Positions 2,636 through 47,944 of a stretch of 64,000 nt of DNA are shown here, piece by piece. The DNA comes from Vulcanimicrobiota bacterium. GTDB taxonomy: Bacteria > Vulcanimicrobiota > Vulcanimicrobiia > Eremiobacterales > Eremiobacteraceae. A program made the translations under genes and the position numbers. Below the pieces are notes generated by a model. It had not been told where the DNA came from and ran no database searches. It was given only the letters and a program-made list of their open reading frames with translations. The stretch covers positions 276,531-340,530 of the forward strand of contig CAWDWJ010000008.1 of the NCBI GenBank assembly GCA_963806005.1, read 5' to 3'. Every line of letters starts with the position of its first letter. Position 1 is the first letter of the stretch.

Positions 2636-3354
2636 GTCGCCTTGGGCGTGACGGGCTTGAGCGCTTCGGCTTGGGCGAGCTCCGCGCAGATCTTCTGCAC
2701 GGCGAGGCGCGGGTCGGCGGCTTTGGTGATCGGCCTGCCCACGACGATGAAGTCGGCTCCCGCCAGCACGGCTTCCGATGGTGTCGCGGTCCGTTTTTGG
2801 TCGCCGCCGGCGTCGCCCGTCGGCCGGATGCCCGGACAGATGACGGTGAATGCTTCCGAAGTGCGCGCGCGGACGATGGGCACGTCCTCCACCGGACACA
2901 CGACGCCGTCGAGTCCGCACTCCTGGGCCAGCGCCGCCCGGATGCTCACCACCTCATGTATCGTACGATCGATGCCGATCTCACGCAGGTCCTCGTCGGA
3001 GAGGCTGGTCAGCATGGTCACCGCCACGATCTTCATCGACCGGCCGTTGGCGTTAATCTCATCGCGCGCTTTCGCCGCCGCCGTCATCATGGCGCGGCCT
3101 CCGGCCGCATGCACGGTCACAAAGGTTGCGCCGCTGCGGGCGACGCTGCGGATGGCGCCGGCGACGGTGTTGGGGATGTCGTGCAGCTTGAGGTCGAGGA
3201 AGATGTTGCGTCGTGCTTCGCGCAGCTCGGCGACGATCTCGCTACCGAACGAGTAGTAGGCCTGATAGCCGACCTTATACCACTGCACGTCGGCCGCCGT
3301 GTGCCGGAAGACGTCTTGCGCCTCTTCGAGCTTGGCCTCGTCGAGAGCGATCAT
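2632..3354 (-). CDS. pyrF: orotidine 5'-phosphate decarboxylase
   Basis: Starts at MIALDEAKLEEA (CAT at 3352-3354). Motifs FLDLKLHDIPNTV and VVGRPIT. Confidence 0.9.
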   Translation of the reverse strand: MIALDEAKLEEAQDVFRHTAADVQWYKVGYQAYYSFGSEIVAELREARRNIFLDLKLHDIPNTVAGAIRSVARSGATFVTVHAAGGRAMMTAAAKARDEINANGRSMKIVAVTMLTSLSDEDLREIGIDRTIHEVVSIRAALAQECGLDGVVCPVEDVPIVRARTSEAFTVICPGIRPTGDAGGDQKRTATPSEAVLAGADFIVVGRPITKAADPRLAVQKICAELAQAEALKPVTPKAT

Positions 3355-3362
3355 GAGCTGCG

Positions 3363-14081: not shown

Positions 14082-14157
14082 GGGGATGTAGCTCAGCTGG
14101 TAGAGCGCTTGCTTCGCATGTAAGAGGCCAGGGGTTCGAGTCCCCTCATCTCCACCA
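14082..14157 (+). tRNA. tRNA-Ala (anticodon CGC), CCA encoded
   Basis: Folded by hand into a 76-nt cloverleaf: acceptor GGGGATG/CATCTCC with the G3:U70 alanine identity pair, D arm GCTC/GAGC, anticodon stem CTTGC/GTAAG, loop TTCGCAT, T arm AGGGG-TTCGAGT-CCCCT. Confidence 0.95.
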
Positions 14158-16221: not shown

Positions 16222-16242
16222 TCTTGGGTTGCGCTTTCGAGT

Positions 16243-19037
16243 CTAGACCTTGAGTGCTTCTTCGACCGCCTGATCTTCCGACCACGCCGCACCTTCGGCC
16301 GCGAGCTTTTCTATCTCCGCTTCGCTCAGCTGATCGCGCAGTGCGGCCATGAGCTTCTCGTGGCCCCACTTCTCCGTGGGCTCACGCTCATACCCACTTC
16401 TTTGTAGTTGCACATCGACGTAGCCGATGAGGCGCGCCGCATCGTGCATGATCTCCGCGCAGCGCCAAGAGCAGCGCAAAATGCTGCAACGCGATCGCGA
16501 TGCCGAGTGCATTTTGCGCTTGCCGCGCCCAGCGCAGACCCTCGCGATGCGGCCTCACGCGCTCCATCGACGTCTCCCAGCGCAATGCGATAGGCAGCGA
16601 TGTTGTATGTAGCTCACCGCCAAGATCGACGCGTTCTTACCACGCGCGTCAGATCTCTAGGGCCTCGCCTGCCAAGCGTAGTGCCTGCTCAACCTGCCCA
16701 TCGGCGAACTCCAACTCCGCGAGATTTCCCAGCACCACAGCTGTGCCCTGCCTCGTTTCCCAGCGCCTTGTACGCTGCAAGCGCCTGCGCATACAACTCG
16801 CGCCCGCGACGACATCGCCGCGAGCCCGCTGGATGCCCGCTCTGCGGATCAGGCAGTCAGCCACTCCCGGTTTATCTCCGTAACTCGCGCATCGCCGCAA
16901 GCGCGCGTGCGTTCACTCACTGGCCTCTTCAAACGGCCCATTTGAAAAAGACCGAAGCGCAAGAATGCAGCGCCCAGGCCTGCCCCATGCTCGTCGCCCA
17001 CCGACTGGTAGAGCGCGAGGGCGCGTTGCAGCGCAGTCGTGCTTGCGCTTGCCGGAGGAAATCTGGCTAAGCGCACGCCACAGCCGGGCCGCCACGTGCG
17101 GGTGGCATCGATTCATCAAGGCTCGCTTGTGCGCAGGCTCGATCCAATAGCGCCCCTCCACCGTGAGTCCGCCACGCAGCCATAGCATCTGCCAGCGCTC
17201 CGGCCACGGCACCACCCAGCGCCACATCGTGTCCGTCTTTGAGCGACCACTCCAACACGGCGCGGTAGTTGTCCAGTTCCCGTTCCACGCTCGCCAGCCA
17301 CGCCGCGGTCGAGCCTGTGCCGAAGCGTCTTATCGGCCTCTTGCGCCTGATCGCGAAAGTACTCGGCGTGACGGCGAGCCAGCTGTTCGCGCTGCGCCAG
17401 CTGCTGTCAGCTTCTCCAGCGCATAGGCGCGCGTGGATTCGAGCAAATGGTAGCGTTCTTGCTCGCCTGCGGTGTCGGCCACGACCAACGACTTGTCGGT
17501 CAGCGATGAGAGCAGGTCTAAGATGTCGATCTCATCGAGGTCCTCGCCGCTGCACACCGCCGTGGCCGCATCCAGACTGAAGCCTCCGGCGAAGATACCC
17601 ACCCGATTGAACAGCATCTGCTCCTGCGGGGTGAGCAGGTCGTAGCTCCAGTCGATGAGCGCGCCGAGCGTCTTCTGCCGCGGGAGTGCCGTGCGGCTCC
17701 CGCCGGTGAGAATCTTGAAGCGTTCGTTGAGCCGTTGGGCGAGGTTCGGGATGCTAAAGACCTTCACCCGAGCGCGGCAAGTTCGATGGCCAGCGGAATA
17801 CCATCCAGACGGCGGCATATGTCGGCGACAATCGGTGCGTTGTCGTCGGTCGAGCGCAAAGGACTTGTCAACCGACCGCGCCCGATCGACAAACAGCGCC
17901 ACCGCGCCAAATTCCATGATCGCTGCCGGCGTGAGATCGGCAATCTTATGCGGCACGTCGAGTGAGGGAAGCCGCAAGTACCTCTTCGCCACTCACCCCA
18001 GCGCCTGGCGTGACGTGGCAAGCAGGCTGCACATCAGGGCAACTGCGGATGATCTGCGTTGGCGATCGCGGCGACAGCTTCCAAGACATGCTCGCAGTTA
18101 TCCAAGATCAGCAGCAGCTTCTTGCGGCTCAGCCACTGCGGAATGGACTCGTCAATTCTGCGGCCCTCGACTTGGGGCATGCCCAATCTCTTTGGCGATA
18201 ACGCTTGAGACGAGTTCGGGGTCGGTGATCGGGCGCAAAGTCGACAAGCCACACGCCATCGGGATTGTGGTCGAGGACTTCGGCTCCCACTTGCAGCGCT
18301 AGCCGCGTCTTGCCGACGCCGCCGGAACCAAAGAGCGTCAGCAGCTTATGCTGACTCAGCAGAGACTTCACTTCTTCAAGGTCGTGCTCGCGACCGCGAA
18401 AGCTCGTCGGCTGAATGGGAAGGTTGTTCGGAATCGTATCGAGTGACTTGAGCGGCGGAAACTCTGCTGGCAGACCTTCGATGGTCAGCTGCCAGACTTG
18501 TTCGGGTTCGGTGAGGTCCTTGAGCCGGTGCGAGCCGAGATCAACCAGCGATGCGCCGGCGGGAAGATCGCTATGGGCTAGTTCGCGGGTGGAACCCGAC
18601 AAGAGAATCTGGCCGCCGTGGCCGATGGACATGAGTCGTGCCACTCGGTTGACGGCCGGTCCGAAGTAGTCGCCGTTACGCTCCGAAGCCTCGCCGGCAT
18701 GCAGCCCGATGCGTACTCGCAAGCCGCCAACTGCAGAAAAATCTTCTTCGCTCAAGGCCCGTTGCGCTTCGAACGCAGCCGCGACAGCATCCGAGACGCG
18801 GGCGAAAGCGACGCAAAACGCGTCGCCAATGGTCTTGAACACGTACCCGTCGTGTTGATCGATCGCATCGCGCTCAAAAGCGCATCATGGCGCTTCACCG
18901 CGTCATCCATCGCCTCGCGCTGCGATCTCCCAACGCTGCGTGGAGCCCTCAATGTCGGTAAAGAGAAACGTGACCGTGCCAGTAGGCAAAGAGACGGGGG
19001 CATTTGCCGCTGGGACTGCCCCCTGGGGGTTGGACAT
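16243..19037 (-). pseudogene. cyclase-STAND(NB-ARC-like)-TPR gene, decayed copy 1
   Basis: Homologous pieces lie in at least five different frame segments: N-terminus MSNPQGAVPAANAPVSLPTGTVTFLFTDIEGSTQRWE from 19037; FKTIGDAFCVAF...GSGGVGKTR in 18129-18842; LLLILDNCEH in 18034-18252; DICRRLDGIPLAIELAA in 17764-18021; C-terminus ...AAWSEDQAVEEALKV ending at 16243. Confidence 0.85.
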
Positions 19038-19192
19038 AGGCGTTGTATTCTGCTGGGGTGCTATTTGCGCCTACCCAACCATGCCGGGCATTGGGGCCAC
19101 ATCGGGCTGGCTCCGACTCATCACGTGAGGCCGTAAAGCTGGCTGAATCTGCGTGCCCGCAAGTTGCGTCCGCGTCACTCCAGTGAGTCTAA

Positions 19193-19365
19193 GCGCACGG
19201 CATATCGTACGGCAATCCCGCCATACCACCAGCAACATTCTGCAACTCCCTGCAACATTCTGCAACATGCGAACGCGCGTGTCATCTGGCGGAGCCTTAT
19301 TTCATCATGGTCCTGCAATTAGTTCGCATGTAAGAGGCCAGGGGTTCGAGTCCCCTCATCTCCAC
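19193..19365 (+). repeat. att-like repeat B: conserved arm (19193-19322) + tRNA-Ala 3' half (19323-19365)
   Basis: Core 43/43 identical to the tRNA. The arm carries GTACGGCAAT and four heptamers at 10-bp spacing (19230-19266). Confidence 0.9.
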
Positions 19366-19544
19366 AAACCTTCGCTACGCGAATTCACATGCTCGTTTGG
19401 ACTTCCCAACATCAGAGCGAGACTCATGCCAAATCGTTGTTGATTGCCGGCGACCCAACTTGTGGTCGAAATTCAGCCCCCGAAAGCGATGCAACGTGCG
19501 TCACGCCTAAGAAACGCCGGACGCTTGCGCTGGCCGCGTTACTT

Positions 19545-20015
19545 CTATTGCTTGATGAAGTTTACCGTGAACGGTGCAACGCCGCTTACCTGAAAGATCG
19601 TACCGCCCTTGGCCGTGACCCAGTGACGGACAAGGGCCGGAATAACAACGTAAGAACCTGGTCCGAGAGCGGTTGTCTTGGACCGATCCATCTTGTCGCC
19701 AACGCCGAACATTACCGTGCCGCTTAGAATGGTAAGGCGCTCGGTATCTGGATGCCAGTGCAATGGTATTGTATACCCATCGGGTAGCTTCAGCCGCATC
19801 GTGTACGGTGATCCGGTCTTTTTAGGATCACCATCCATTATCGCAACCTGTACGCTGGGCAGTATCTTAGATGGCATCCATTTTATGTCAACCGGTGTCA
19901 CCATCTTTGCGGCATTGGCGACACCCGACATCCCCGTTGTATTTGCCAAGGCAATCATACCCAAGCTCATGGCAATTACCGTGGACAGAAACGCTGCAAA
20001 AACCAACTTCTGCAT
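19545..20015 (-). CDS. secreted cupin-domain protein (module 3 cargo)
   Basis: Signal peptide MQKLVFAAFLSTVIAMSLG; cupin motif PLHWHPDTERLTILSGTV. Close paralog at 34712-35182. Confidence 0.8.
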   Translation of the reverse strand: MQKLVFAAFLSTVIAMSLGMIALANTTGMSGVANAAKMVTPVDIKWMPSKILPSVQVAIMDGDPKKTGSPYTMRLKLPDGYTIPLHWHPDTERLTILSGTVMFGVGDKMDRSKTTALGPGSYVVIPALVRHWVTAKGGTIFQVSGVAPFTVNFIKQ

Positions 20016-20080: not shown

Positions 20081-20254
20081 GTACGGCACTCGTACGGCAA
20101 TCCCGCCTTAACACCAGCAACTTTCTGCACATCACAGCAACTTTCTGCAACGGACTAACGTAGAAGCTGCCCGGCGAACCACGATTTCATCAGAGTCTTG
20201 TGTTTAATTCGCATGTGAGAGGCCAGGGGTTCGAGTCCCCCTCATCTCCACCAC
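20081..20254 (+). repeat. att-like repeat C: arm (20081-20207) + tRNA-Ala 3' half (20208-20254)
   Basis: Core differs from the tRNA by one substitution (GTAAGA to GTGAGA) and one extra C in the T stem; identity runs through CCACCAC. The arm has a duplicated CGTACGGCA and the heptamer block. Confidence 0.85.
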
Positions 20255-20317
20255 GGCTCGTCTATCAATGTGCGCCACTATGCAACATGTGAGCGCGGCC
20301 TTGCCTCCACGTTCGCC

Positions 20318-23111
20318 TTAGACCTTGAGCGCTTCTTCGACCGCCTGATCTTCCGACCACGCCGCACCTTCGGCCGCGAGCTTTTCTATCTCGGCGTCCC
20401 TCAGATGCTCGCGCAGTGCGGTCATAAGTTTCTCGTAGCCCCACTTCTCGGTGGCCTCACGTTCCTACCCGAGTTCTTTGTATTGCATATTGACGTAGCC
20501 GATGAGCCGCGCCGCATTGTGCAGTTCGCCGCGCAGCGCCTAGAGCAGCGCGAAATGTTGCAACGCGATCGCGATGCAATATGCAGTTTGTGCTTGTCGC
20601 GCCAAGCGCAGCCCCTCGCGGGCAGCTTCACGCGCTCCATCGCACATCTCCCAGCGCAATGCGATAGGCAGCGATGTTGAGGTAACCAATCGCCAAGTTC
20701 GTCGCGTTCTTCCCACGCGCCAAGATCTCCAGGGCCTCGCCTGTCAGGCGCAGCGCCTGCTCGACCTGACCATCTCGCGAACTCCAGCTCCGCAAGATTT
20801 GCCAGCACCATAGCTGTTCCGGCCTCATTTCCCAGGGCCTTGAATGCGCCGCGAGCGCCTGCGCATACAACTCGCGCGCCGCGACAACATCGCCGCGATC
20901 CCACTGGATGAGCGCCTGCTGACTCAGGCAGTCGGCCACTCCCGGCTTATTCCCCAACGTGCGCATCGCCGCAAGCGCCCGTGTGTTCGCTTCGCTGGCC
21001 TCTTCAAGGTGGCCCATTTGAAAGAGACCAACGCCAGATAGTGTAAAGCGCCCAAGCCGCCCCATCTTGTCGCCTACCGATTCGTATAGCGCGAGGGCGC
21101 GTTGCGCATAGTCGTGCTTGCTCTTGCCCATGGAAAGCGTGGCTGATGCCCGCCACAGCCGGGCCGCTACCTGCGGGTGCACCGATTCGTCAAGGCCAAC
21201 TTGCGCAAGGTCGATCCAATAGCGTCCTTCGGCCGTGAGTCCGCCATCTCGCCAGAGCCGCTCCAGCGCTCCAGCCAGGGCACCACCCAACGCCATATCG
21301 TGTCCATCTTTAAGTGTCCATTCCAGTACGGCGCGGTAGTTGTCCAGTTCCACTTCCGAGTCGCCAGCCACGCCGCCAGTCGATCCCGCTGCCGAAGCGC
21401 TGGTCCGCCCCCTGCGCCTGATCGCGAAAATACTCTCGCGTGGCGGCGAGCCAGCGGTTCTCGTTCGCATGCCGCCATAAGCTTATCCAAAGCATATGCT
21501 CGAGTGCATTCCAGCAAACGGTAGCGTTCCTGCTCGCCTGTCGTGTCGGCCACAACCAGCGACTTGTCGGTCAGTGATGAGAGCAAGTCTAAAATGTCGA
21601 TGTCATCGATGCCCGTCGCCAGCTGCACACCGCCGTGGCCGCATCCAGGCCGAAGCCCCCGGCAAAGATGCCCAAACGGTTGAAGAGCATCTGCTCTTGC
21701 GCGGTGAGCAGGTCGTAACTCCAGTCGATGAGCGCACTCAGCGTCTTCTGACGCGGCAGCGCAGCACGGCTACCGCCGGTGAGGATCTTGAAGCGTTCGT
21801 TGAGCCGCTGGGCGAGCTTCGGGATGCTCAGAATCTTCACCCGAGCGGCTGCCAGTTCGATCGCTAGCGGAATACCATCCAGACGGCGGACAGATTTCAG
21901 CGACGATCGGGTGCATTGTCGTCGGTTAGAACGAAGCGGGTGTCGGATGCGATCGCTCGATCGACAAAGAGTGCGATCGCGCCATAGGCGGATGCTGTTT
22001 CTGCGGAAAGTCCCGCCAGTTGGTTCGGGCAGCGAAAGCGATGGCAAACGGTAGGTAAACACTCGCCACCGATGCCTAGCGCCTGACGTGACGTGGCGAG
22101 GATGCGCACCTTGGCCGCGGTGCTAAGAATCGCTGTGGCAAGTCCGGCCACAGCATCGATCAAGTGCTCGCAGTTGTCGAGAATCAGCAATAGGTGCTTG
22201 CGTTTCAGCCACTGCGGGATAGCCTCCGCAATTTTGCGTCCCCGCTGTTTGGGTGATGCCCACCACTTTGGCGATCAAGCTTGCGACAAGCTCGGGATCG
22301 GTGATTGGAGCCAGATCGACGAACCACGCGCCATCTGGGATACTCGTCTAGCGAGGTCGGCGGCGACTTGCACGGCAACCGCGTCTTGCCAATACCGCCT
22401 GCGCCGGATAGCGTCAGCAGACGGTGTTCACCGATCAATGACTTGACCTCCTCAAGGTCGCGCTCGCGACCGCGGAAGGTCGTGAGGTGTATCGGCAGGT
22501 TATTCGGCGACGCATCGAGTGATCGCAGCGCCGGAAATTCTTGCTGCAGGCCAGCGCCGCTCAGCTGCCATACATGCTCGGGCTCGGCGAGGTCTTTGAG
22601 GCGATGCAAGCCGAGATCGGTGAGCGCGACATCCGCCGGCGAGTCGCTGCGCACTAACTCGCGGCTCGCTCCAGAGACTAAGATCTGCCCTCCATTGCCT
22701 ATGGACAGCAAGCGCGCAACGCGGTTAACGGCTGGGCCGAAGTAATCGCCATCGCGCTCGTCGGCCGTTCCGGTGTGGATCGCCATCCGCACGCTGATGC
22801 CATTGACGCTTGAGAAATCCTCGGCTTTCAAGCGCTCGCTGTGCATCGAGTGCAGCCGCAATAGTATCTTCGGGCCGTCGGAACGCAACACAAAAAGCGT
22901 CGCCGACCGTTTTGAAAACAAACCCATGATGATGTTCGGTTGCCGTTCGCATAAGCGCATCATGGCGCGCGACTGCAACCTTCATCGCCTCGCGCTGGGT
23001 CTCCCAACGTTGCGTCGAGCCCGTGATATCCGTAAACAGAAACGTGACCGTGCCAGTAGGTAAAGTTACGAACTTCTTGGATTTCTCTTTCGCCCCACTC
23101 GCGCGTGGCAT
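20318..23111 (-). pseudogene. cyclase-STAND(NB-ARC-like)-TPR gene, decayed copy 2
   Basis: N-terminus MPRASGAKEKSKKFVTLPTGTVTFLFTDITGSTQRWE at 23111. Homologous pieces are spread over ORFs 22725-23111, 22205-22978, 21897-22190, 21589-22062, 21167-21628, 20628-21470 and 20422-20904. There is also an in-frame TAG at 20465-20467 where copy 1 has TAT. Confidence 0.85.
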
Positions 23112-23336
23112 GAGGGTCAGGGTTCGGCTGTGTGGAGGTCGAGCCCTAGTCTATGGAGCCGGCGCCGGGCTAGGCGGAGCGACTAAGACCCTGTTCTGCT
23201 TACCAAAAACGCGGAGGCACCGCGTGAGGGTCTCGGCTCGACATGAACATCATTATCCATATTTGAATCTTCGAGACGCCAGGGCCCAATTGGGAGAGCA
23301 GGGCGGATGATTTCTGTACCAGCAGTACTAACTCGG

Positions 23337-23509
23337 GCGCACGGCATATCGTACGGCAATCCTACCTAAACACCAGCAACTTTCTGCACATTACTGCAAC
23401 ACTCTGCAACATGCGAACGCCCGTGCTAGGTGAAAAAGCTCGGTTTCATCAGGGCCGCGTAATTAATTCGCATGTAAGAGGCCAGGGGTTCGAGTCCCCT
23501 CATCTCCAC
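23337..23509 (+). repeat. att-like repeat D: arm (23337-23466) + tRNA-Ala 3' half (23467-23509)
   Basis: Core 43/43 identical to the tRNA; arm collinear with B, E, F and G. Confidence 0.9.
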
Positions 23510-23567
23510 ACTCAAGATTTTGCAGCTGTGTCGATTCTGTTGGCGCTAGTAGACCTCAAAATTCTTC

Positions 23568-23687
23568 TCAGACCTTCAGCGCTTCTTCGACCGCCTGATC
23601 TTCCGACCACGCCGCAACTTCTCTCGCAAGCTTTGCGAATTCAGCGTCTCTGAGCTTCTCCCGCAGCTGGGCCATCAACTTGACCGC
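23568..23687 (-). pseudogene. orphan 3' tail (last ~39 codons) of a former cyclase-STAND gene
   Basis: Encodes AVKLMAQLREKLRDAEFAKLAREVAAWSEDQAVEEALKV-stop, collinear with the C-termini of copies 1 and 2. Lies out of frame behind and under the end of the intact gene 23641-26460. Confidence 0.75.
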
Positions 23688-26460
23688 AGACAGCGAGGGC
23701 TTCTTCAAGGGCCTGCTCTTGCGACCAAACTGCGCCCTCGGTCATGAGGGCTGCAAAACGCACTTCTCCAAGTTGATCGCGCAGCGATCCTATTAAAGCA
23801 TCAATATCCATAGGAACGCGTCTTGTCTCGCGCACCCAGCCCTTGCTGTCCGCTTTCCTGTAACCCAGGAGCTTCGCCGCCCGATCAAGGTCACGGTCGT
23901 GTGCTGCGAGGGCTATGCACGGCTGCAGCGTTACTTCACGCGCGTCGAGCACCTCATCGCGAAGGATTCGCAGGGCGCTGCGCATGGCCGACCGAGCCTC
24001 ATCAAAGCGTTCCGTCAAAGTGAGGTACGCGGCCTTGGCACTGAATATGAGCGCTTCCATGTCGTTTTCGTGGAGCGTCTGCACTATGGCTAGCGCTTCT
24101 TCCGTCAGCTCGAGCGCCCGGGGCACATCATTCGTCGCTTTCTCCAACGCCGCTTCATCCAAGAGCATGATCGCCAGGTTGCGGTCAACCCCCCGCTTCT
24201 TGTAGTAGCGTAATGCGGCGGCGAAGTGGTGCCTCGCGAGTTCGAACTGTTTTGTGTGCGTGTACAGTTTGGCCAACTGCTGCAGCGAGGCTGTTTCACG
24301 ATAAATGTCATGAGCGCGCCGAGCAGCGTCGAGCGCCTCGGTCAATGCTGATTTCGCTTCGTCAAGCCGGTCATATGTTGTGTTCATTTCACCAAGATAA
24401 AAGAGGGCTCGGGCCAATATACGGTCATCCCCAAGCTTACGCGCTGCAGCTACAGCACGTTCGATGGTGGTTTCGTAGACCTCGTCTTCCGAGAGAGCTA
24501 TATGCGTGCGCGTCAGCGCTAAATCGATGGCAACGCTCAAACCAGGGTTACTGTCTGGCGCGATGCTCGCGCGTGCCGCTTCCAGCCAGTGCCGGCCTTC
24601 CAGTTTGTGACCAATCCAGTAAGCCCAGAGGTGTTCGGCAATTTCCGCTCCCAGGGCGCGATCGTTGCCTTGATCTAAGCACCATTGCAAGGCGGCGCGG
24701 ATATTGTCCAGCTCGGCTTCAATGAAGGCCAACCAGGCGGGCGCTGGGAGCACTTGCCACCGCTCGGCGATCTGAAGCGCGTATCTCGCGAAAAAGCGTG
24801 CGTGCCGCTGGGACGTTGCGTCGAATTCTGCTTGCCTTCGCACGAGCTCCAACCCGTATTGACGCAAAGACTCCAGCAACCGGTAGCGCTGCGTCTCGGC
24901 GCCAGCATCAACCGTGACGAGTGATTTATTAACGAGCGATGATAGAATGTCGAGGATCTTAAACTCGTCAATTGTCTCGTCCGAACAGACGTCACTCGCC
25001 GCTTCGAGCGTCCAGCCGCCTTGGAAGATGGAGAGACGGCGGAAGATCGTTCGTTCAGCCTCGTTGAGCAGCTCGTAGCTCCAGTCGATTGCTGCGCGCA
25101 TGGTCTGCTGGCGCGGGAGAGCCGTGCGATCGCCCCCGGTCAGCAACCGGAAACGCTCATCCAAACGTTGTGACAGTTGCTTGAGATTGAGAATGGTCAC
25201 ACGGGCAGCCGCCAGTTCTATTGCCAAAGCGATGCCGTCCAGACGGCGGCAAATGTCGGCGACGATCGGCGCCGCATCGTCGGTGAGCATGAACCGCGCG
25301 TCAATCGCTGCAGCTCGCGCCACAAAAAGGGCCACAGCCTCATGTTTGAGGGCCTCTTCTGCCGACAACGCGACATTACGGGAAGGCACGGATAACGAAG
25401 GCATACGGTAGACCTGCTCGCCCCGCACGTTGAGAACTTCGCGGCTCGTTGCGAGCACCGCCACCCTCGGACAATTCTTGACCATAGCTGCCACCACGCG
25501 CGCCGTCTCGCCGACGATATGTTCGCAGTTGTCGAGGATAAGCAAGAGGCTCTTGTTCTTGAGGTACAAGCAGAGGTCGTCCAGAGGCTTGCGCACCGGT
25601 TGCAGTTGCAGGTCGAAGACCTCAGCGATTGCGCTCACAATCCCGTCGTCGGTTCCCATTTGGGCGAGGTCGACGAACCAAACGCCATCACCGGATCCGT
25701 CAAGCACATCTGCTCCTACCTGCAGCGCCGTACGAGTCTTTCCTACTCCTGCAGTACCAACAAGCGTCAGCACTTGAGATTTGGCGAGCAGCGACTTGAT
25801 GTCGCTTAGCTCATGCTCGCGACCAACAAAAGGAGTCGCCTGGCGCGGAAGATTGTTCGGTAGCGTCTCAAGCGAGCGCAGCGATGGAAAAATTTCTTCA
25901 AGTCCGGGCGCGACCAACTGGTATACGTGCTCGGGGCGGACGAGATCGCGCAGCTGATGCTGGCCGAGGTCCCGAACGCCGGACTGTGCAGGCATCAATC
26001 CTTGTAGCAGATCGGTCGCGGCTTGGGAAATGAGCACCTGGCTGCCATGACCGATCGCCAAGAGTCGCGCGACCCGGTTGACCGGTGGCCCGAAATAATC
26101 TCCGTCACGTTCTTGCGCGGTCCCCGTGTGGATCGCCATGCGCACGCGTATACCCTCCACCGAAGCGAAATCTTCAACGCTGAGTTCGCGCTGTGCATCT
26201 ATGGCCGCCGCTATGGCGTCTTGTGGCCGCGCAAAGGCGACACAAAACGCGTCGCCCACCGTCTTGAACACCCAACCGCGATACTTTACCGCGGCTGCGC
26301 GCAGCAGCTCGTCGTGGCGCTTTACTGCCGCTTCCATAGCCTCGCGGTGCTGCTCCCAACGCTGCGTCGAGCCTTCGATGTCGGAAAATAGAAAGGTCAC
26401 GGTACCCGTCGGTAGAGTGACGGGGCCTTTGGGCTCGGCCCCACTCTCGGGTGGCATCAT
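23641..26460 (-). CDS. class III adenylate/guanylate cyclase - STAND (NB-ARC-like P-loop NTPase) - TPR protein, intact (module 5 cargo)
   Basis: Start taken at MMPPESGAEPKG (26460) by alignment with the paralogs. Cyclase motifs FSDIEGSTQRWE, FKTVGDAFCVAF, GDYFGPPVNRVARL. Walker A GTAGVGKTR, Walker B LLLILDNCEH. About 400 aa of TPR-like helical repeats. Confidence 0.85.
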   Translation of the reverse strand: MMPPESGAEPKGPVTLPTGTVTFLFSDIEGSTQRWEQHREAMEAAVKRHDELLRAAAVKYRGWVFKTVGDAFCVAFARPQDAIAAAIDAQRELSVEDFASVEGIRVRMAIHTGTAQERDGDYFGPPVNRVARLLAIGHGSQVLISQAATDLLQGLMPAQSGVRDLGQHQLRDLVRPEHVYQLVAPGLEEIFPSLRSLETLPNNLPRQATPFVGREHELSDIKSLLAKSQVLTLVGTAGVGKTRTALQVGADVLDGSGDGVWFVDLAQMGTDDGIVSAIAEVFDLQLQPVRKPLDDLCLYLKNKSLLLILDNCEHIVGETARVVAAMVKNCPRVAVLATSREVLNVRGEQVYRMPSLSVPSRNVALSAEEALKHEAVALFVARAAAIDARFMLTDDAAPIVADICRRLDGIALAIELAAARVTILNLKQLSQRLDERFRLLTGGDRTALPRQQTMRAAIDWSYELLNEAERTIFRRLSIFQGGWTLEAASDVCSDETIDEFKILDILSSLVNKSLVTVDAGAETQRYRLLESLRQYGLELVRRQAEFDATSQRHARFFARYALQIAERWQVLPAPAWLAFIEAELDNIRAALQWCLDQGNDRALGAEIAEHLWAYWIGHKLEGRHWLEAARASIAPDSNPGLSVAIDLALTRTHIALSEDEVYETTIERAVAAARKLGDDRILARALFYLGEMNTTYDRLDEAKSALTEALDAARRAHDIYRETASLQQLAKLYTHTKQFELARHHFAAALRYYKKRGVDRNLAIMLLDEAALEKATNDVPRALELTEEALAIVQTLHENDMEALIFSAKAAYLTLTERFDEARSAMRSALRILRDEVLDAREVTLQPCIALAAHDRDLDRAAKLLGYRKADSKGWVRETRRVPMDIDALIGSLRDQLGEVRFAALMTEGAVWSQEQALEEALAVCGQVDGPAAGEAQRR

Positions 26461-26630
26461 TGTTCGACTTCGCGTTTCTGCGGATGGAGGCCTAGTAGAC
26501 CCCACGCCTAGGCAGGGCGCACAACGCACAGGACACCCGTAAGGCCACGCAGGTAATCGTGTAATGCTCTTCTAGGCAGCTATTCAAATTGGGCTTGAGA
26601 GCTGGCGCGCTCGTGGCCGGAGCGTTCTAC

Positions 26631-26800
26631 GCGCACGGCATTTGTACGGCAATCCCGCCCCAACACCAGCAACTCTCTGCAACTTACTGCAACATTCTGC
26701 AACGTGCGAACACAGATGCTATCTGGCGGAGCTCGATTTCATCAGGGTCCGGGAATTGATTCGCATGTAAGAGGCCAGGAGTTCGAGTCCCCTCATCCCC
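26631..26800 (+). repeat. att-like repeat E: arm (26631-26759) + degenerate tRNA-Ala 3' half (26760-26800)
   Basis: Core has CAGGGG to CAGGAG and CATCTCC to CATCCCC changes, then diverges. Arm is intact with four heptamers. Confidence 0.85.
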
Positions 26801-26902
26801 GTCATCCCAAGCCTTTGTGACGATAAGTTCTCGCGCTGCGCTCAATGCGAACTTGTTTTGCTATAGTGAGCTTAGTGTAGGTGGAGTTGGTATCCACTAC
26901 CA

Positions 26903-34711: not shown

Positions 34712-35182
34712 TCATTGCTTGATGAAGTTTACTGTGAACGGTGCAACGCCGCTTACCTGAAAGATCGTACCGCCCTTGGCCGTTACCCAGTGACGTACAT
34801 AGGCCGGAATGACGACGTAAGAACCTGGTCCGAGTGCGGTTGTCTTGGACCGATCCATCGTGTCGCCAACGCCGAACATAACTGTGCCGCTCAAAATGGT
34901 AAGGCGCTCAGTATCTGGATGCCAGTGCAATGGTATTGTATACCCATCGGGTAACTTCAGGCGCATCGTGTACGGTGATCCGGCCTTCTTAGGATCGCCA
35001 TCCATTATCGCAACCTGTACGTTCGGCAGCTGCTTAGATGGCATCCATTTTATGTCATTTGGTGTCACCATCTTTGCGGCATTGGCCTGACCTGAGATCT
35101 CCGTCGTACTTGCCAAAGCAATCGTAAACAGGCTCATCGTAATTACCGCGGCCAGAAACACCGCAAACACTAACTTCTGCAT
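34712..35182 (-). CDS. secreted cupin-domain protein, paralog of 19545-20015
   Basis: Start MQKLVFAVFLAAVITMSLF (CAT at 35180-35182). Near-collinear with the module 3 cupin, including its 5' leader. Confidence 0.8.
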   Translation of the reverse strand: MQKLVFAVFLAAVITMSLFTIALASTTEISGQANAAKMVTPNDIKWMPSKQLPNVQVAIMDGDPKKAGSPYTMRLKLPDGYTIPLHWHPDTERLTILSGTVMFGVGDTMDRSKTTALGPGSYVVIPAYVRHWVTAKGGTIFQVSGVAPFTVNFIKQ

Positions 35183-35243
35183 GATACCCTCCCTGTCGCG
35201 GTTGGCGGTGGGGTCTAGGTTCACACGCACAATACCGATGAAC

Positions 35244-40706: not shown

Positions 40707-41183
40707 CTACCCCTGCGAAAGGCGATCGGCCGGCGGCTCCCACACGAGTTCGGCGACATCGAACACCAACTGCACGTCTTTTTGCTCCAACGGTTCCGGC
40801 GGCGGATCAGGCACTCTCACCTCACCGCACAGCACGCAGATGGAATCGTTGAGGAAGCGGTATTTCTCCTGATCGGTCACGTGCCACGCCGCGCCGACCA
40901 CTTGCCGCCGGCCCGGCGGATACGCTCGACCATAGCCCTGGTAATCCACCATGACGAGGCCACCGCCGTCGAGCTCGATGAAGCCTTGCATGTTCATCGC
41001 AAACGCGCGGTCGGTTCTGCGCCGGGGATGGTTGCCGGCACGGAACTTTCCGGTGAGCCGTCCTTCGCATCGCCCCTCCGCGAAATAGTAATGGTGCTCT
41101 TCGGTTCCATTCGGACCCGTCAAGTCGATCTGCCAGCCATCGGGGTAGAAGAATTTCACGGTGTACAGAGGTCGAAGTTGCAT
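40707..41183 (-). CDS. DUF3237-family protein
   Basis: 158 aa; the pattern LYTVKF ... EGRCEGRLTGKF resembles DUF3237/UPF0311 from memory. Confidence 0.55.
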   Translation of the reverse strand: MQLRPLYTVKFFYPDGWQIDLTGPNGTEEHHYYFAEGRCEGRLTGKFRAGNHPRRRTDRAFAMNMQGFIELDGGGLVMVDYQGYGRAYPPGRRQVVGAAWHVTDQEKYRFLNDSICVLCGEVRVPDPPPEPLEQKDVQLVFDVAELVWEPPADRLSQG

Positions 41184-41369
41184 GGCTCTTCCTTCTAGAC
41201 ACGAGGGCAGTAGACGAGACGTCGATTCATGTTCTTTCTCCTCGCCTGCGCGCGGGAGAGATGCGCCGGAGGACCGTGGAAGATTGCGCTGCGAACGCGG
41301 CCCTGGTCATCCATGGGGGTGGCCCGCCGGGTCGTGGTCCGAGCCCGGGAGAGGAAGGAGCTCTGAGTC

Positions 41370-43046
41370 GTGGTCGTCCCCTGGTACCGATCGAAGTGGG
41401 CCCTCGCCGGCGGCGTCATCCTCGTGCTGGGGCTGGTCGGCGCCGTCGCCCTTTCCTTCTTCTTCCAGGTCGACCGCTTCCGCCCGCTGCTCATACAACT
41501 CATCGAGATCAATACCGGACACAAAGTCCAGATCGATTCGCTGGAACTCCACTTCGTGCCGACCGTGCACCTCCAAGCCGTGAATGTCCGTGTGAGGAAC
41601 TCGCAGGGCTTCCCGCAGGGTGACGCCATCATCGTGAAGTCGGTCGATCTCGACGTCGGGCTGGCCGCGGTGCTGTCGCGTAAGCTCGATGTGACGGCTA
41701 TCGTACTCAGCGGCATCCAGGTGAATCTCCTCCGCAACCCCTCCGGCCGTACCAACCTCGAGCTTCCGGTTGCAATCGGTCCACCGCGGGAGACCGCGGT
41801 CGCCCCTGGGGGTGGCGCCTTGCTGACGCTCAATCACGTCGGTGCGGTGGCCGTGACGGACGTAGCGATCACCGTGGCCGGCTACGACGGACGCACCAGC
41901 AAGGTGACCCCGTCGCTCACGTTGAGCGGTGTGAATGCCACCATGCGTTCGATCAACCTGAGCGCACCCGACGCGCTGAAGCGACTCGAAGTGAGCTCGG
42001 TCCTGCGAGGCGTGAGGATCACGACTCCTGCGCTTGCCAAGCCGGTGCAGTTCGACGCGGGCGACCTTCTCATCAAGAAGAGCGCCGCGCGGGGAACGTT
42101 TTCAGCAACGCTCGACACCATTCGTGTCACGGGGAGCGTCGCGGTCGCCAGTATCCACCCGTTCTCCACGATCGCCTTCGAGGTCGTCATCCCCGACCTC
42201 GACATCAAAAAGATGGAGGGCCTCGTGCTCCGCAATGCAAGCGCCCGTTCTGCGCCCTCGACGCCGCGGCGCTTACTTGCGCGCGGAGCGGTCAGAGTCG
42301 CGCGGCTCGTGCTTGGCCCGTTCGAGGCGACGCAAGTGCGTGGGCGGCTGAGCGTCTATAGCACCACGATCCAAGCGGACTCCTATGCGCTTTCAACCTA
42401 TGGCGGCACTGTCCAGGGCGCGGCGACGCTCGTTCACTCCGCCGCTGGTCTCCCCACAACCGTCACCGCGACGGTGCGCGGCGTCAGCGTCGAGCGGCTG
42501 GCGACCCTGCTCTCTCCCGGGTCACAAAGGAAGATCACGGGGACGCTTGAGGCAGATCTTAGACTGGCAACCGTGATGGGGCACGATTTCGAGCAAGCTC
42601 TCACGGGGAACGGAACCTTTGCGGTGCGCAACGGATCTTTTCCGAGATTGGACCTCAAGACCACCTTGGAGAAGCTGGCTATGGCGGTGCATCTCATCAC
42701 CGTGCCCGCAGGACCCACGCGGTTCAGCTACCTTGGCGGAGATATTCGCATCGCGCAGCAGCGCGTGTACAGCAACGCACTTCGGCTCGAGGCACAAGGT
42801 CTGGAGGGGACGGCGCGGGGGAGCTTCGGCTTCGATAAGACCCTTGACTATACGGCGACGGGCGCGATCAAGGCCCCACCATCAGCCGCATCGGGGGGCG
42901 TCATGTCACTTCTGGGGCGGATGATCAGGACGCTCATGCCGGGGACGTCGGGCGCAGCCGGTATCCAGGTGCCGTTCACCGTGCGAGGGACCTTCCACGA
43001 TCCCAAGTTCGCGCCGGCGGGCAACCCGGAGCCGATTCGGGGCTGA
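41370..43046 (+). CDS. AsmA-family protein
   Basis: N-terminal TM anchor, then the AsmA-like repeat-poor beta-rich body (IDSLELHFVPTVHLQAVNVRVRN ... C-terminal VPFTVRGTFHDPKF). Confidence 0.75.
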   Translation: MVVPWYRSKWALAGGVILVLGLVGAVALSFFFQVDRFRPLLIQLIEINTGHKVQIDSLELHFVPTVHLQAVNVRVRNSQGFPQGDAIIVKSVDLDVGLAAVLSRKLDVTAIVLSGIQVNLLRNPSGRTNLELPVAIGPPRETAVAPGGGALLTLNHVGAVAVTDVAITVAGYDGRTSKVTPSLTLSGVNATMRSINLSAPDALKRLEVSSVLRGVRITTPALAKPVQFDAGDLLIKKSAARGTFSATLDTIRVTGSVAVASIHPFSTIAFEVVIPDLDIKKMEGLVLRNASARSAPSTPRRLLARGAVRVARLVLGPFEATQVRGRLSVYSTTIQADSYALSTYGGTVQGAATLVHSAAGLPTTVTATVRGVSVERLATLLSPGSQRKITGTLEADLRLATVMGHDFEQALTGNGTFAVRNGSFPRLDLKTTLEKLAMAVHLITVPAGPTRFSYLGGDIRIAQQRVYSNALRLEAQGLEGTARGSFGFDKTLDYTATGAIKAPPSAASGGVMSLLGRMIRTLMPGTSGAAGIQVPFTVRGTFHDPKFAPAGNPEPIRG

Positions 43047-44224: not shown

Positions 44225-47005
44225 ATGCCACGTGCCAGCGGAGCCAAGCCCAAACCGAAGAAAACCGTGCCGTTGCCAAGCGGCACGGTCAGCTTTCTGT
44301 TCACCGATATCGAAGGCAGCACGCGACGCTGGGAGTCCCACCGCGACCAGATGCAGCACGCCGTCGCCCGGCACGACAAGCTGCTGCGAGCGGCAAGCGC
44401 AAAGCACGGCGGCGTGGTGTTCAAGACCGTCGGCGACGCGTTCTGCGTGGCGTTTCGGCGGCCGGAGGACGCGCTCGGCGCCGCGCTCGACGCGCAGCGG
44501 GCTCTCGGGGAAGAAGATTTCACAGGCGTCGACGGCTTGCGCGCTCGCATGGCGATCCACACCGGAACGGCGGACGAACGCGACGGCGACTACTTCGGCC
44601 CGACGGTGAATCGCGTCGCGCGGCTCCTCGCTGTCGGCCACGGCGGACAGGTGCTCGTCTCAGGGACGTCGGCGGATCTGCTGCAGGGATCGATGCCGGC
44701 GCGCACGAGCCTGCGCGATCTCGGCGAGCATCTGCTGCGCGATCTCACCCGCCCCGAGCAGGTCTATCAACTCGTCTCTCCCGGACTGCCCGAGATATTT
44801 CCCGCGCTACGCTCGCTCGGCGCGCTGCCCAACAATCTGCCGCGCCAAGCGACGAGTTTCATCGGACGCGACGAGGAGCTTGCCGAGATCAAGACGCTCG
44901 TCGCCAAGTCGCAGCTCGTGACGCTTGTAGGGACGGGCGGCGTCGGCAAGACTCGTGCGGCCTTGCAAGTGGGCGCGGATCTGCTCGACGGCTCGGGTGA
45001 CGGCGTGTGGTTCGTCGACCTCGCGCAGGTCGCCGGCACGTCGTACGTCATTCCAGAGATCGCACGCGTCTTCAGCATCCAGCCGCAGGCGGACCACGAC
45101 TTTCTCGATGACTTGCGCTTCTATCTAAAGGGCAAGCATCTGCTCCTCATCATCGATAACTGCGAGCACGTGGTCGCTGAAGCCTCGCGGGTGATCTCCG
45201 AGCTGATCAAGACGTGCCCTCGCGTCTACGTGCTCGCTACCAGCCGTGAAGGCCTCAACGTGCACGGCGAACATGTCTACCGCATGCCGTCACTGTCCGT
45301 GCCCTCGCCCCTTGAAAAGCCGGACGCGGAGGCGGCATTACGCTATGGCGCCGTCGCGCTCTTCGTCGCGCGCGCCTCTGCGCTGGATTCCCAGTTCTCG
45401 TTCACCGATGAGAAAGTACCGATCGTGGCTGACATCTGCCGCCGGCTCGACGGCATCGCGCTCGCGATCGAGCTTGCGGCCGCGCGAGTGACGATCCTCA
45501 GCCTCAAGCAACTGTCGCAGCGGCTTGACGAGCGTTTCCGCCTGCTCACAGGCGGCGATCGCACGGCGCTCCCGCGGCAACAGACGATGCGCGCCGCCAT
45601 CGATTGGAGCTACGAGCTACTCTCGGAAACCGAACAGACGGTCTTCCGCCGGCTCTCCATCTTCCAGGGCGGGTGGACACTTGAGGCAGCCTCCACGGTC
45701 TGTTCGGACGATTCACTCGATGAGTTCGCGATCTTCGACACCATGTCGCTCTTGGTGAACAAATCCTTGGTGGTAGTGGAGTTCAGCGCTGAGACCCAGC
45801 GCTATCGCCTGCTCGAGTCCTTGCGGCAATACGGCCTGGAGCGGCTGAATCAGCGCACCGAAGTCGACGTCATCGGCCGCCGCCACGCACAGTACTTCGC
45901 GGAGTTCGGCCGGCGGATCGGTGAGAAGTGGCAGACGATGCCGGATGTCGTCTGGCTGGCCGCCATCGACGAGGAGATCGACAACATCCGCGCGGCGCTC
46001 AGCTGGAGCCTGGAAAAGGGAAACGATCCCACGCTCGGCGCCAGGCTCGCCGAACAGTTATGGGTGTTCTGGTTTGGCCGCAGCCCTCACGAGGGCAAGC
46101 GCTGGATGGAAGCAGCCCGGGCCGCGGTGGATGCCGAGCCCGATCCTGTCTTGAGTCTCGACATCGATCTAGCCCTGACGCGCTTGCGTGTCGGACGTTC
46201 GCGGGAAGAGACGCTCGCGCTGTGCGAGCGAGCACTCACTGAGGCACGAGCACTCGGGGATGAGCGCAGGCTCGCCCGAGCGGTCTTCTACTGGGGCGAG
46301 GTGCTGGTCTTCGAAAATCGATGCGGCGAGGCGGAGGTGGCCTTGACCGAAGCGCTCGAGCACTCGCGAAATGTCGGCGATCAATACCGCGCGACGTCCG
46401 CTCTGCAGATACTCGGCAAGGCATATGTGCGGCTCGGACGTGTCGATGAGGCGCGCAAGGCCTTCAACGAGGCCATGCGGTACTACGGGGTACATTCGGC
46501 CGAACGGAATCACGCGCTGGCGCTCATCGATAATGCGAACTTGGAAAGGGTGAGCGGCGACCCGGAACGCGCCATCGCCTTGACGCTCGAGGCGCGGAAG
46601 ATCGCGCAGATCCTGCGCGATCGCAATCTCGAGATCATCGCGGAAGCCGCTTCTGGTTGGCACTCGTTGCTCACTGGGCAGTTCGACACCGCGCGGGCGG
46701 CGGCCCACAGATATCTGACGATCAGCATCGAGGAGCGTTTCGAATATGGGGTCGCGACCGCCGTTCAGTCGCTTGGCGGCATCGCCGTTCACGATGAGGA
46801 CTTCGAGCGAGCTGCCCTGCTGCTCGGGTACTCTGAAGCAAACGTACAGAAATTCTTCGCAAGAAACCCGTGGGTCGACTTCGACGTGGAGTCGTTTCTG
46901 GGGCCCTTGCGCGAGCGGCTCGGCGAGGAGGCGCTCGCTGCGCTTATGGCCGAGGGGGCCGCTTGGCCTCAAGAGCGGGCCGTCGAAGAGGCCTTCAAGG
47001 TCTGA
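44225..47005 (+). CDS. class III adenylate/guanylate cyclase - STAND (NB-ARC-like) - TPR protein, intact, outside the array
   Basis: MPRASGAKPKPKKTVPLPSGTVSFLFTDIEGSTRRWE; FKTVGDAFCVAF; Walker A GTGGVGKTR; Walker B LLLIIDNCEH; canonical tail AAWPQERAVEEAFKV-stop. No att-like repeat on either flank. Confidence 0.9.
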   Translation: MPRASGAKPKPKKTVPLPSGTVSFLFTDIEGSTRRWESHRDQMQHAVARHDKLLRAASAKHGGVVFKTVGDAFCVAFRRPEDALGAALDAQRALGEEDFTGVDGLRARMAIHTGTADERDGDYFGPTVNRVARLLAVGHGGQVLVSGTSADLLQGSMPARTSLRDLGEHLLRDLTRPEQVYQLVSPGLPEIFPALRSLGALPNNLPRQATSFIGRDEELAEIKTLVAKSQLVTLVGTGGVGKTRAALQVGADLLDGSGDGVWFVDLAQVAGTSYVIPEIARVFSIQPQADHDFLDDLRFYLKGKHLLLIIDNCEHVVAEASRVISELIKTCPRVYVLATSREGLNVHGEHVYRMPSLSVPSPLEKPDAEAALRYGAVALFVARASALDSQFSFTDEKVPIVADICRRLDGIALAIELAAARVTILSLKQLSQRLDERFRLLTGGDRTALPRQQTMRAAIDWSYELLSETEQTVFRRLSIFQGGWTLEAASTVCSDDSLDEFAIFDTMSLLVNKSLVVVEFSAETQRYRLLESLRQYGLERLNQRTEVDVIGRRHAQYFAEFGRRIGEKWQTMPDVVWLAAIDEEIDNIRAALSWSLEKGNDPTLGARLAEQLWVFWFGRSPHEGKRWMEAARAAVDAEPDPVLSLDIDLALTRLRVGRSREETLALCERALTEARALGDERRLARAVFYWGEVLVFENRCGEAEVALTEALEHSRNVGDQYRATSALQILGKAYVRLGRVDEARKAFNEAMRYYGVHSAERNHALALIDNANLERVSGDPERAIALTLEARKIAQILRDRNLEIIAEAASGWHSLLTGQFDTARAAAHRYLTISIEERFEYGVATAVQSLGGIAVHDEDFERAALLLGYSEANVQKFFARNPWVDFDVESFLGPLRERLGEEALAALMAEGAAWPQERAVEEAFKV

Positions 47006-47029: not shown

Positions 47030-47944
47030 GTGAACACCATGCAGACTCAAGCGCCCTCTATCTCTGAGATCTTCGGGCCCGCCGGGTGGCGAGACGGCCG
47101 GCGCGACGTCGCCCTCCACCTTGCGGACCAGATGCTGACCCACCACTGGCACGTCGATCAGCTGTCGTGGAGCACGCTGCCGCCGCTGCCTATCCCCAGC
47201 GACCGCAGCGACACGCGCAAGCTCGTGCGCTTCTACAAATCGGTGGTCGCCGTGCAGACGAGAGCGGAGGAGATCGCCGTCTCCATCGCGCGGCGCCTGC
47301 TCGTGTATGCCAACGAGGAGCGGCTCGAGGTTTCGTTCCGACGAGCGCTTGGCGCACTGCTCAACGACGAGGCGTCGCACGTCGCCACCATGCTCAAGCT
47401 CGAGATGCTCGCCGATGTGACGTATCCCGGCGTGTCGGCTCGACCGGATGAGAGCCCGTTGTTCGAAGCGCTCATGCCCGCCATCGAGACGCTCGAACCG
47501 GCCGTGCTCGCCGTCTTCATGGCCTCCTATGAGGCCTCGGTCGCGATCCGTTCCTACCAGGAGCAGCAGACCTACCGGATGCCCTCCATACTCTCGGAGA
47601 TGGGCGCACATGCCGCTGAGGACGACGGCCGACATGCGAAGACTTTGCGCGTCGTCGCCCACGAGTTCTTGCAGCTCTTCCGCTCGCGCTATGGCGACGA
47701 CGAGCGGGGCACGTCGCCGGAGTGGCGCGCGCGCATACTGGAACCGTTCAGCCGTTTTTGGACATTGATGCCCGCCCATGAGTTCTACCTCGCAGGCAGC
47801 GATCGCCGTCAGCTCCGCCACGTGCGCGAGCTCGTGGCGCACGATATCGCGATCATGACGAGGATCCTCGACTTCCTGGGCGTGTCGGCCGAGGCGCAGG
47901 ATTATGGCCAGGTCAAGGCCATCGCGGATCTCTTGCCGGCGTAG
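47030..47944 (+). CDS. ferritin-like (putative di-iron carboxylate) protein
   Basis: Helical protein with two E-x-x-H-type motifs (NDEASH, AEDDGRH). 24 nt downstream of the cyclase-STAND gene on the same strand. Confidence 0.5.
   Translation: MNTMQTQAPSISEIFGPAGWRDGRRDVALHLADQMLTHHWHVDQLSWSTLPPLPIPSDRSDTRKLVRFYKSVVAVQTRAEEIAVSIARRLLVYANEERLEVSFRRALGALLNDEASHVATMLKLEMLADVTYPGVSARPDESPLFEALMPAIETLEPAVLAVFMASYEASVAIRSYQEQQTYRMPSILSEMGAHAAEDDGRHAKTLRVVAHEFLQLFRSRYGDDERGTSPEWRARILEPFSRFWTLMPAHEFYLAGSDRRQLRHVRELVAHDIAIMTRILDFLGVSAEAQDYGQVKAIADLLPA

Follow-up and report, generated by a model that had tools for sequence, protein, structure and literature searches.

Class III nucleotide cyclases are joined to STAND ATPases in proteins of the Rv0386, Rv1358, and Rv2488c type, in which an N-terminal cyclase is followed by an NB-ARC-type P-loop domain, a series of helical repeats, and a C-terminal LuxR/GerE helix-turn-helix (HTH) domain. 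We analyzed a stretch of 64,000 nucleotides from a Vulcanimicrobiota bacterium (contig CAWDWJ010000008.1, positions 276,531 to 340,530; the whole stretch is called the window below, and coordinates refer to it), in which genes with the same order of cyclase, P-loop, and helical repeats recur. Searches with tblastn located four paralogs, two intact (copies 3 and 4) and two decayed (psi1 and psi2), with E-values of 0 to 1e-96, which puts their number in 64 kb well above anything that chance would yield. A first-pass annotation of the DNA had also counted four, the fourth at 44225-47005, and had put them forward, from the union of STAND and cyclase modules, as a candidate defense module. The count is borne out; as to function, it is likely that copies 3 and 4 encode cytosolic STAND-gated adenylyl cyclase sensors, of the Rv0386 type without the LuxR tail, which signal through cyclic AMP (cAMP).

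The copy 3 open reading frame (ORF) runs from 23641 to 26529 on the minus strand (962 aa); from the likely start, the ATG at 26460, it encodes a 939-aa product identical to database protein P0001. Pfam identified a Guanylate_cyc domain (9.6e-13, 48.6 bits with a cut-off of 21.9, residues 41-193 of the 962-aa ORF) and an NB-ARC domain (28.2, cut-off 23.5), and TPR_12 and TPR_MalT were also matched. Copy 4, 60% identical to copy 3 by tblastn, contains the same set of Pfam domains, its Guanylate_cyc domain scoring 49.8 bits (cut-off 21.9). Besides the family profile match, the residues that mark a class III cyclase are all present in copy 3: the metal-binding Asp27 and Asp70, the adenine-specifying Lys66 and Asp121, and the transition-state Asn128 and Arg132, as seen in alignments with the PDB entries for GRESAG4.3 and Ma1120. 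A sequence search of the PDB matched the cyclase domain only, to trypanosomal GRESAG4, Mycobacterium avium Ma1120, and M. tuberculosis Rv1900c/LipJ and Rv1264. The Walker A motif, GTAGVGKTR (G235-x-x-G238-x-G240-K241-T242), and the Walker B motif, LLLILDNCEH (D310), read as they had in the first-pass annotation, and in an alignment of 52 full-length relatives these motifs and the six cyclase residues are invariant or near-invariant; the cyclase and NTPase modules are thus both predicted to have been kept functional. Conservation of the catalytic residues, including the Lys66/Asp121 pair, makes cAMP the predicted product.

An AlphaFold2 model of copy 3 (pLDDT 86.5, pTM 0.76) has a cyclase fold at residues ~19-183, a linker, a P-loop nucleotide-binding domain with a helical domain and a winged helix at ~215-545, and an unbroken α-helical repeat array extending to residue ~925, with pLDDT mostly >85 in the repeats. 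The best whole-chain match identified by Foldseek was 6mfv, a STAND-TPR protein of the archaeon Pyrococcus horikoshii, followed by Apaf-1, CED-4, and plant NLR NB-ARC structures; no Avs structure was found among the top 50 matches. The cyclase part matched the Ma1120 and Rv1900c structures with TM-scores of 0.75-0.89 (normalized by target length), and the precomputed annotation includes HTH_77 winged-helix matches. The full set of parts of an NB-ARC/AP-ATPase STAND protein was found, namely a nucleotide-binding domain with Walker A and B motifs, an ARC domain, a winged helix, and a C-terminal repeat sensor. Pfam, motifs, and model agree on the architecture first read from the sequence, a class III cyclase followed by an NB-ARC-like NTPase and TPRs. 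The TPR part evolves fastest, at 32-73% identity compared with 66-84% for the cyclase.

Kinship with Rv0386-like proteins, which had also been noted at first pass together with the missing LuxR domain, is supported by a protein from Mycobacterium sp. JS623, annotated as a LuxR regulator, that is 38% identical over 750 aa (E 2e-135) across cyclase, STAND, and TPR; the alignment reaches the last helices before the HTH. The JS623 protein ends in a GerE HTH (1.7e-17), whereas Pfam found no GerE/LuxR HTH in copies 3 and 4, so the output of the latter would be cAMP only. A second difference concerns the adenine pair, which is Lys66/Asp121 in the window proteins and Gln/Asn in the JS623 homolog; Rv0386 itself is known for Gln/Asn at these positions.

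The same core of NB-ARC, winged helix, and TPR is found, as a homologous unit, in AfsR/SARP and PknK-type regulators, MalT, and PH0952 (6mfv). In these STAND regulators the output is a DNA-binding or kinase domain, whereas in the window proteins it is a nucleotide cyclase; MalT, moreover, belongs to a different STAND clade from the NB-ARC/AP-ATPase-like module described here. NCBIfam gave a weak AfsR match to residues 221-859 of copy 3, and over ~600 aa of the STAND-TPR core, 34-38% identity is shared with plasmid-borne genes: Rhodococcus genes annotated as protein kinase (one record as pknK), a Streptomyces BTAD-domain (SARP-type) regulator, and winged-HTH and LuxR regulators. The STAND-TPR core is thus a module to which bacteria attach regulatory outputs of several kinds, whether kinase, DNA-binding, or cyclase. 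Among systems with many cyclases, the closest parallel is Sinorhizobium meliloti, where ~28 cyclases are thought to feed distinct signals to the Crp-like Clr (PMC5498481). Shared features are the many sensor cyclases per genome, STAND-cyclase homologs on plasmids, and CRP-type genes near some relatives; Sinorhizobium plasmids carry cyclase-bearing homologs that are 42-43% identical over cyclase, STAND, and part of the TPR. The S. meliloti cyclases CyaD1, CyaD2, and CyaK, in contrast, are described as receptor-like and not as STAND-gated (PMC5498481).

A mechanism can be drawn from what is established for STAND proteins and for class III cyclases, and from it we infer the product, the oligomerization switch, the ligand, and the receptors. 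Each protein would be a complete signal transducer in itself. In the resting state the TPR arm would hold the NB-ARC in a closed, ADP-bound form; the protein would be a monomer, and its cyclase inactive because class III active sites form only across a dimer interface. Binding of a ligand to the TPR sensor would bring about nucleotide exchange and oligomerization of the NB-ARC, gathering the N-terminal cyclase domains, which would then convert ATP to cAMP, to be read by unlinked CRP-family or other cyclic nucleotide (cNMP)-binding proteins. Most of the divergence among the paralogs falls in the TPR, and the input that each passes to a common cAMP pool is therefore probably a different one, as in the model proposed for S. 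meliloti. We know of no STAND-gated cyclase that has been mechanistically dissected.

Copy 3, psi1, and psi2 lie in an array headed by an intact tRNA-Ala gene (Table 1). Seven direct copies of the 3' ~45 nt of this tRNA follow downstream, with ends at 16224, 19368, 20253, 23512, 26805, 28187, and 33163, and a conserved ~110-nt arm bearing three CTGCAAC motifs stands ahead of six of the seven. The units between repeats measure 0.9-5 kb, and the three island cyclase copies fill one each (3144, 3259, and 3293 nt). Plausible cargo genes from 14196 to 35230 are all on the minus strand, and GC content in the stretch from ~14 to 38 kb is 58%, lower than the ~65-66% of the window flanks. At third codon positions (GC3) the values are 0.65 for copy 3 versus 0.79 for copy 4, by which measure copy 3 appears compositionally foreign. 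The other cargo consists of two cupins, a MarR regulator, a P-type ATPase, a dihaem cytochrome c, an α/β hydrolase, and several proteins without a family match; it is metabolic or stress-related, not defense, and Pfam and PADLOC scans found no defense gene among the island cargo. The two secreted cupin genes (19545-20015 and 34712-35230) are near-identical, with 300 nt at 94% DNA identity; one of them is alone in an 885-nt cassette, and the other lies beyond the last tRNA fragment.

Table 1. Features of the window and of copy 3 (coordinates in the 64,000-nt window).
Feature	Position	Strand	Evidence or remarks
Copy 3, intact cyclase-STAND-TPR gene, 939 aa	23641..26460	-	ORF, Pfam, database identity, tblastn
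Class III cyclase domain of copy 3, residues ~17-190	25891..26412	-	Pfam, PDB alignments, 52 relatives, Foldseek
NB-ARC-type STAND module of copy 3, residues ~205-545 (P-loop nucleotide-binding domain, helical ARC, winged helix)	24826..25848	-	Pfam, motifs, model, Foldseek
TPR-like α-helical repeat sensor of copy 3, residues ~546-925	23686..24825	-	Pfam, model, identity comparison
Copy 4, intact paralog, 926 aa, outside island, syntenic core gene	44225..47005	+	Pfam, tblastn, ortholog in L139/L140
psi2 pseudogene, fills cassette 20254-23512	20294..23114	-	tblastn, six high-scoring segment pairs in changing frames
psi1 pseudogene, fills cassette 16225-19368	16246..19037	-	tblastn; in-frame stops; clade with L016
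tRNA-Ala(CGC), intact, head of array	14082..14157	+	ARAGORN; sole tRNA found
Boundary repeat, 3' side of copy 3: ~110-nt arm and tRNA-Ala 3' 45 nt	23337..23512	+	
Boundary repeat, 5' side of copy 3: same arm and tRNA fragment	26630..26805	+	
304-aa gene, 25 nt downstream of copy 4, co-directional	47030..47944	+	90% identical, same position in L139/L140

Tycheposon-like tRNA-targeting arrays have the same plan, a full tRNA and then cargo units separated by partial tRNA copies (10.1101/2020.12.28.424599), but carry a tyrosine recombinase in or beside the elements. In the window, no integrase was found in the major ORFs scanned from ~0.7 to 49 kb, and jackhmmer with a Vulcanimicrobiota integrase gave no match in the window. 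The array thus resembles tycheposon-type tandem integrations or an integron-like array, without a visible recombinase. An attC-like hairpin site was considered and rejected, the boundary repeat folding no better than shuffled sequence (z = -0.85), and a search of the cassette for a sigma-70 promoter did not find one. An exact search for the arm repeat in 185,579 species genomes returned 0 matches, as did a search of IMG/VR for the arm-plus-core pattern; the only matches to the arm-plus-core repeat were in four metagenome contigs from soil or peat (L013-L016). On L016 the repeat is directly followed by an intact 924-aa cyclase-STAND-TPR gene, oriented as in the window, and the cargo of the remaining repeat-bearing contigs is unrelated (a SARP-like regulator, a TPR protein, and DUF4760). 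The Walker A motif of the L016 gene, at 1254-4028 on the minus strand, reads GSGGVGNTR, with Asn in place of Lys, and nucleotide binding would be impaired unless this is a sequencing error. Carriage on "exchangeable cassettes" accompanied by gene decay, as the first-pass annotation put it, is a fair description of these repeat-bounded units, and the cyclase gene is a recurrent cargo.

The decay itself is seen with either intact protein as the tblastn query: psi1 and psi2 each fall into 5-6 pieces across different frames, in-frame stops are also present in psi1, and the two are 83-87% identical in several blocks of DNA. Both are multi-frameshift pseudogenes, with the caveat that some local indel error is possible, since the OPT transporter (47963-49992) and P-type ATPase (50104-51926) genes of the window are each spread over three frames when compared with intact orthologs in L139. 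These two split genes are either pseudogenes or the result of local assembly indel errors.

A neighbor-joining tree of the copies and their relatives was built from the N-terminal ~260 residues. Copy 3 groups with P0002, P0003, and P0005 (74-77% overall identity); in several assemblies P0003 and P0005 are the first gene of a tandem cyclase-STAND-TPR pair flanked by a GST gene and sat/cysC, and no tRNA fragments were found at these tandem-pair loci. psi1, psi2, and the L016 cassette gene form a separate deep clade. At least two different subfamilies are therefore present among the three cassette copies, so that their recurrence reflects more than one recent duplication. Copy 4 groups with P0020 and P0022, which belong to the core chromosome. 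P0022 is 89% identical to copy 4 and lies in the same gene order (L139/L140): amino-acid permease, SnoaL-like, MetA-pathway porin, cyclase, 301-aa protein, OPT transporter, and P-type ATPase. Because of this close ortholog in a conserved gene order, we conclude that copy 4 belongs to the core genome and has been inherited vertically; copy 3, which is related to a chromosomal gene, has been acquired horizontally. The 304-aa gene that follows copy 4 gave no Pfam, PADLOC, or PDB sequence match, and its product may function together with the core cyclase. The SnoaL-like and MetA-porin genes are adjacent in L139; in the window they are separated by ~2.4 kb (40707-43046) with a 158-aa ORF and an AsmA-family gene, representing either an insertion in the window or a deletion in L139.

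With two of the three cassette copies being pseudogenes, the family very abundant and often duplicated, and other cassettes carrying unrelated cargo, the cassette copies could be functionless passengers, captured by chance and then decaying, with copy 4 alone of importance to the cell. We consider this quite unlikely. The cassette copies come from more than one subfamily, a psi-type cassette gene is intact in L016, and 3 of ~13 cargo genes is, by a rough estimate, above expectation even for a family accounting for 1% of genes. Copy 3, in addition, is intact over 939 codons and appears to be under purifying selection (omega 0.09-0.20 in comparison with L009g1, its chromosomal ortholog). For individual domains, dN/dS between orthologs ranges from 0.07 to 0.38 and is highest in the TPR, although with dS of ~1-3, saturated in most comparisons, omega is rough and shows only that no domain evolves neutrally, a limit that also counts against a firm reading of the genes as sensors. 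If they are STAND-gated cyclase sensors, one paralog would be a stable core gene, and three would have arrived on ~3.2-kb single-gene cassettes accumulating at tRNA-Ala, the redundant copies decaying after arrival. On the best reading, the genes belong to an expanded signaling family, members of which a cassette system picks up from time to time.

The family is found at at least 599 places in species-representative genomes, in Vulcanimicrobiota, Chloroflexota, Ignavibacteria, Verrucomicrobiota, Actinomycetota, Proteobacteria, and other phyla. More than 8000 database clusters match, all 8000 scored candidates passing E<=1e-10, and soil metagenomes are rich in full-length relatives at ~47% identity. 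In IMG/VR the family is present on 3 contigs only. Three "Bacteriophage sp." matches were rejected as phage-encoded homologs, being UNVERIFIED records; the best of them, the sole one inspected, is an unannotated faecal metagenome contig of 75% GC. Clustering of paralogs is seen again in L017 (1-22772), with three cyclase-STAND-TPR genes within 22 kb. L017 also carries a gene for a cNMP-binding FAD oxidoreductase, which diverges from one copy at a distance of 157 nt, together with genes for a Crp-type HTH protein, a tyrosine integrase, and a RES toxin. A literature search found no paper linking Eremiobacterota and adenylate cyclase.

The first-pass annotation had likened the genes to antiphage systems. 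Avs proteins have the same single-gene tripartite logic, an N-terminal enzymatic domain, a STAND NTPase, and a C-terminal TPR-like sensor, but their effector is a nuclease, protease, or NADase, whereas that of the window proteins is a signaling cyclase, in a family without a defense-island context. Pycsar and Pucsar cyclases share the class III cyclase fold. The appeal to cyclases as the signal generators of CBASS was imprecise: CBASS signals come from CD-NTases (cGAS/DncV-like), whose fold differs from that of class III cyclases, and a class III cyclase is the sole nucleotide-generating domain of the window proteins. cNMP cyclases occur in predicted conflict systems (PMC7159879, PMC8195603), and a 2026 preprint on Pucsar describes an "Immune clade 1" of cNMP cyclases with fusions to NACHT and AP-ATPase STAND modules, for which an immune role was proposed in silico (10.64898/2026.08.12.744502). 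The immune idea for cyclase-STAND fusions is thus already published and not new; a 2026 survey of STAND proteins in Nature makes no mention of cyclases.

Applied to the window, such a role would have the TPR see a phage or mobile-element protein, the STAND module oligomerize, and the cyclic nucleotide fire an unlinked abortive-infection effector. We regard this as unlikely, even though the domain logic fits Avs, the paralogs are expanded and clustered, two of three cassette copies have decayed, and cassette carriage recurs in L016. In PADLOC scans at E<=0.01, copies 3 and 4 gave weak matches to a generic TPR model and to mad8, and none to a model of Avs, Pycsar (PycC), CBASS, or any further system; as a positive control, PycC genes next to PycTM genes score 5e-87 to 7e-95. 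The cassette relative in L016 gave a weak partial PycC match (4e-5). Neither PycTM nor CNBD-TIR effector genes are adjacent to the copies in the window. The predicted product, ordinary cAMP, would cross-talk with housekeeping CRP signaling, and the core is homologous to that of PknK-, SARP-, and LuxR-type regulators.

Gene neighborhoods also argue against conflict. A census of flanking genes, taking the closest plausible one to either side of 60 loci in many phyla, yielded 112 proteins, a small sample and not a formal defense score, in which no enrichment for defense was seen. The commonest neighbor family was cyclase-STAND-TPR itself (5 proteins, tandem paralogs), and no recurrent partner besides such further paralogs was found; the remaining neighbors are spread over 143 Pfam families of heterogeneous metabolic and regulatory kind, and PADLOC matched a handful of proteins, mostly to candidate or generic models. 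Ten contexts that were inspected contain mostly metabolic and signaling neighbors, the latter including histidine kinases, response regulators, GGDEF-EAL proteins, and ECF sigma factors. cNMP_binding/HTH_Crp genes lie near two of the ten; toxin-antitoxin genes, an integrase, and a RES toxin near two others count in favor of a conflict role. Orthologs of copies 3 and 4 lie in conserved core synteny, and viral contigs are nearly devoid of the family. A defense module finds no support in profiles, predicted chemistry, core homology, synteny, or neighborhoods, and the proteins look largely like housekeeping-type regulatory cyclases with no island association in other genomes, the outcome that the first-pass annotation had itself named as telling against its proposal.

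Several points weigh against reading copies 3 and 4 as cAMP-signaling sensors. To our knowledge, no member of the subfamily has been characterized biochemically or genetically. Paralog expansion, tandem duplication, pseudogenization, and cassette carriage are also typical of immune receptors. The preprint cited above predicts that cyclase-STAND fusions are immune (10.64898/2026.08.12.744502). No cNMP-binding gene was found in the 64-kb window by phmmer with three cNMP-binding/Crp queries from related loci, a search of limited sensitivity. Finally, four Vulcanimicrobiota genomes that share synteny (loci L025-L029) have a PycTM-like gene 1.8 kb from a homolog, and in L043 such a gene adjoins another homolog in a different arrangement; none was found in the window, where the lack of an evident cNMP effector gene beside the copies had already been remarked, or in the other fetched loci searched.

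In L025 this gene, downstream of a homolog with 47% identity, encodes a 203-aa protein with three transmembrane segments that the PADLOC PycTM model matches at 2e-11. It is a candidate effector for a conflict system, one that would combine Avs-like sensing with Pycsar-like signaling. We traced the lead from the effector side, using 49 relatives at 32 genomic loci. In 17 of 22 Vulcanimicrobiota/Eremiobacterota loci with a PycTM-like gene, no cyclase-STAND-TPR gene lies within 10 kb. At at least seven loci (L035, L036, L039-L042, L046) the PycTM-like gene (PF18967) comes directly after an ORF of ~870 aa that ends within ~20 nt of its start, and this ORF is clpB in both loci scanned (L036 and L039); a marginal cyclase-HMM match (E 3e-5) lies at the end of the L039 locus. 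In other phyla the same PycTM-like family adjoins a genuine PycC of ~250 aa. We therefore rejected the PycTM-like gene as a consistent partner, most such loci having no cyclase nearby; in Vulcanimicrobiota it is an orphan, vertically conserved relative of a Pycsar effector. The linkage of cyclase and PycTM rests on two independent juxtapositions in a phylum with a highly expanded cyclase family, and, given how many paralogs each genome holds, chance might account for both (a rough judgment).

A distributed form of the conflict system, in which many STAND-cyclases each sense a different invader protein and signal to a single unlinked PycTM-like effector, is in our view very unlikely. Were it true, it would amount to a hub-and-spoke Pycsar, with sensors traded on tRNA-Ala cassettes; and a conflict role of any such kind would link Avs-type sensing to cyclic-nucleotide signaling and supply a concrete candidate for the in silico prediction of the preprint.

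If copies 3 and 4 are instead STAND-gated adenylyl cyclase sensors, as we favor, the genes add little, since they would belong to a large, already annotated family. The cassette vehicle is more unusual than the genes it carries, with its 170-nt bounds of arm plus tRNA fragment, its single orientation, and no visible recombinase. A cyclase would be a natural read-out of activation by induced proximity, because dimerization is needed for its activity, and the Vulcanimicrobiota (Eremiobacterota), like rhizobia and mycobacteria, have an expanded set of these cyclases.

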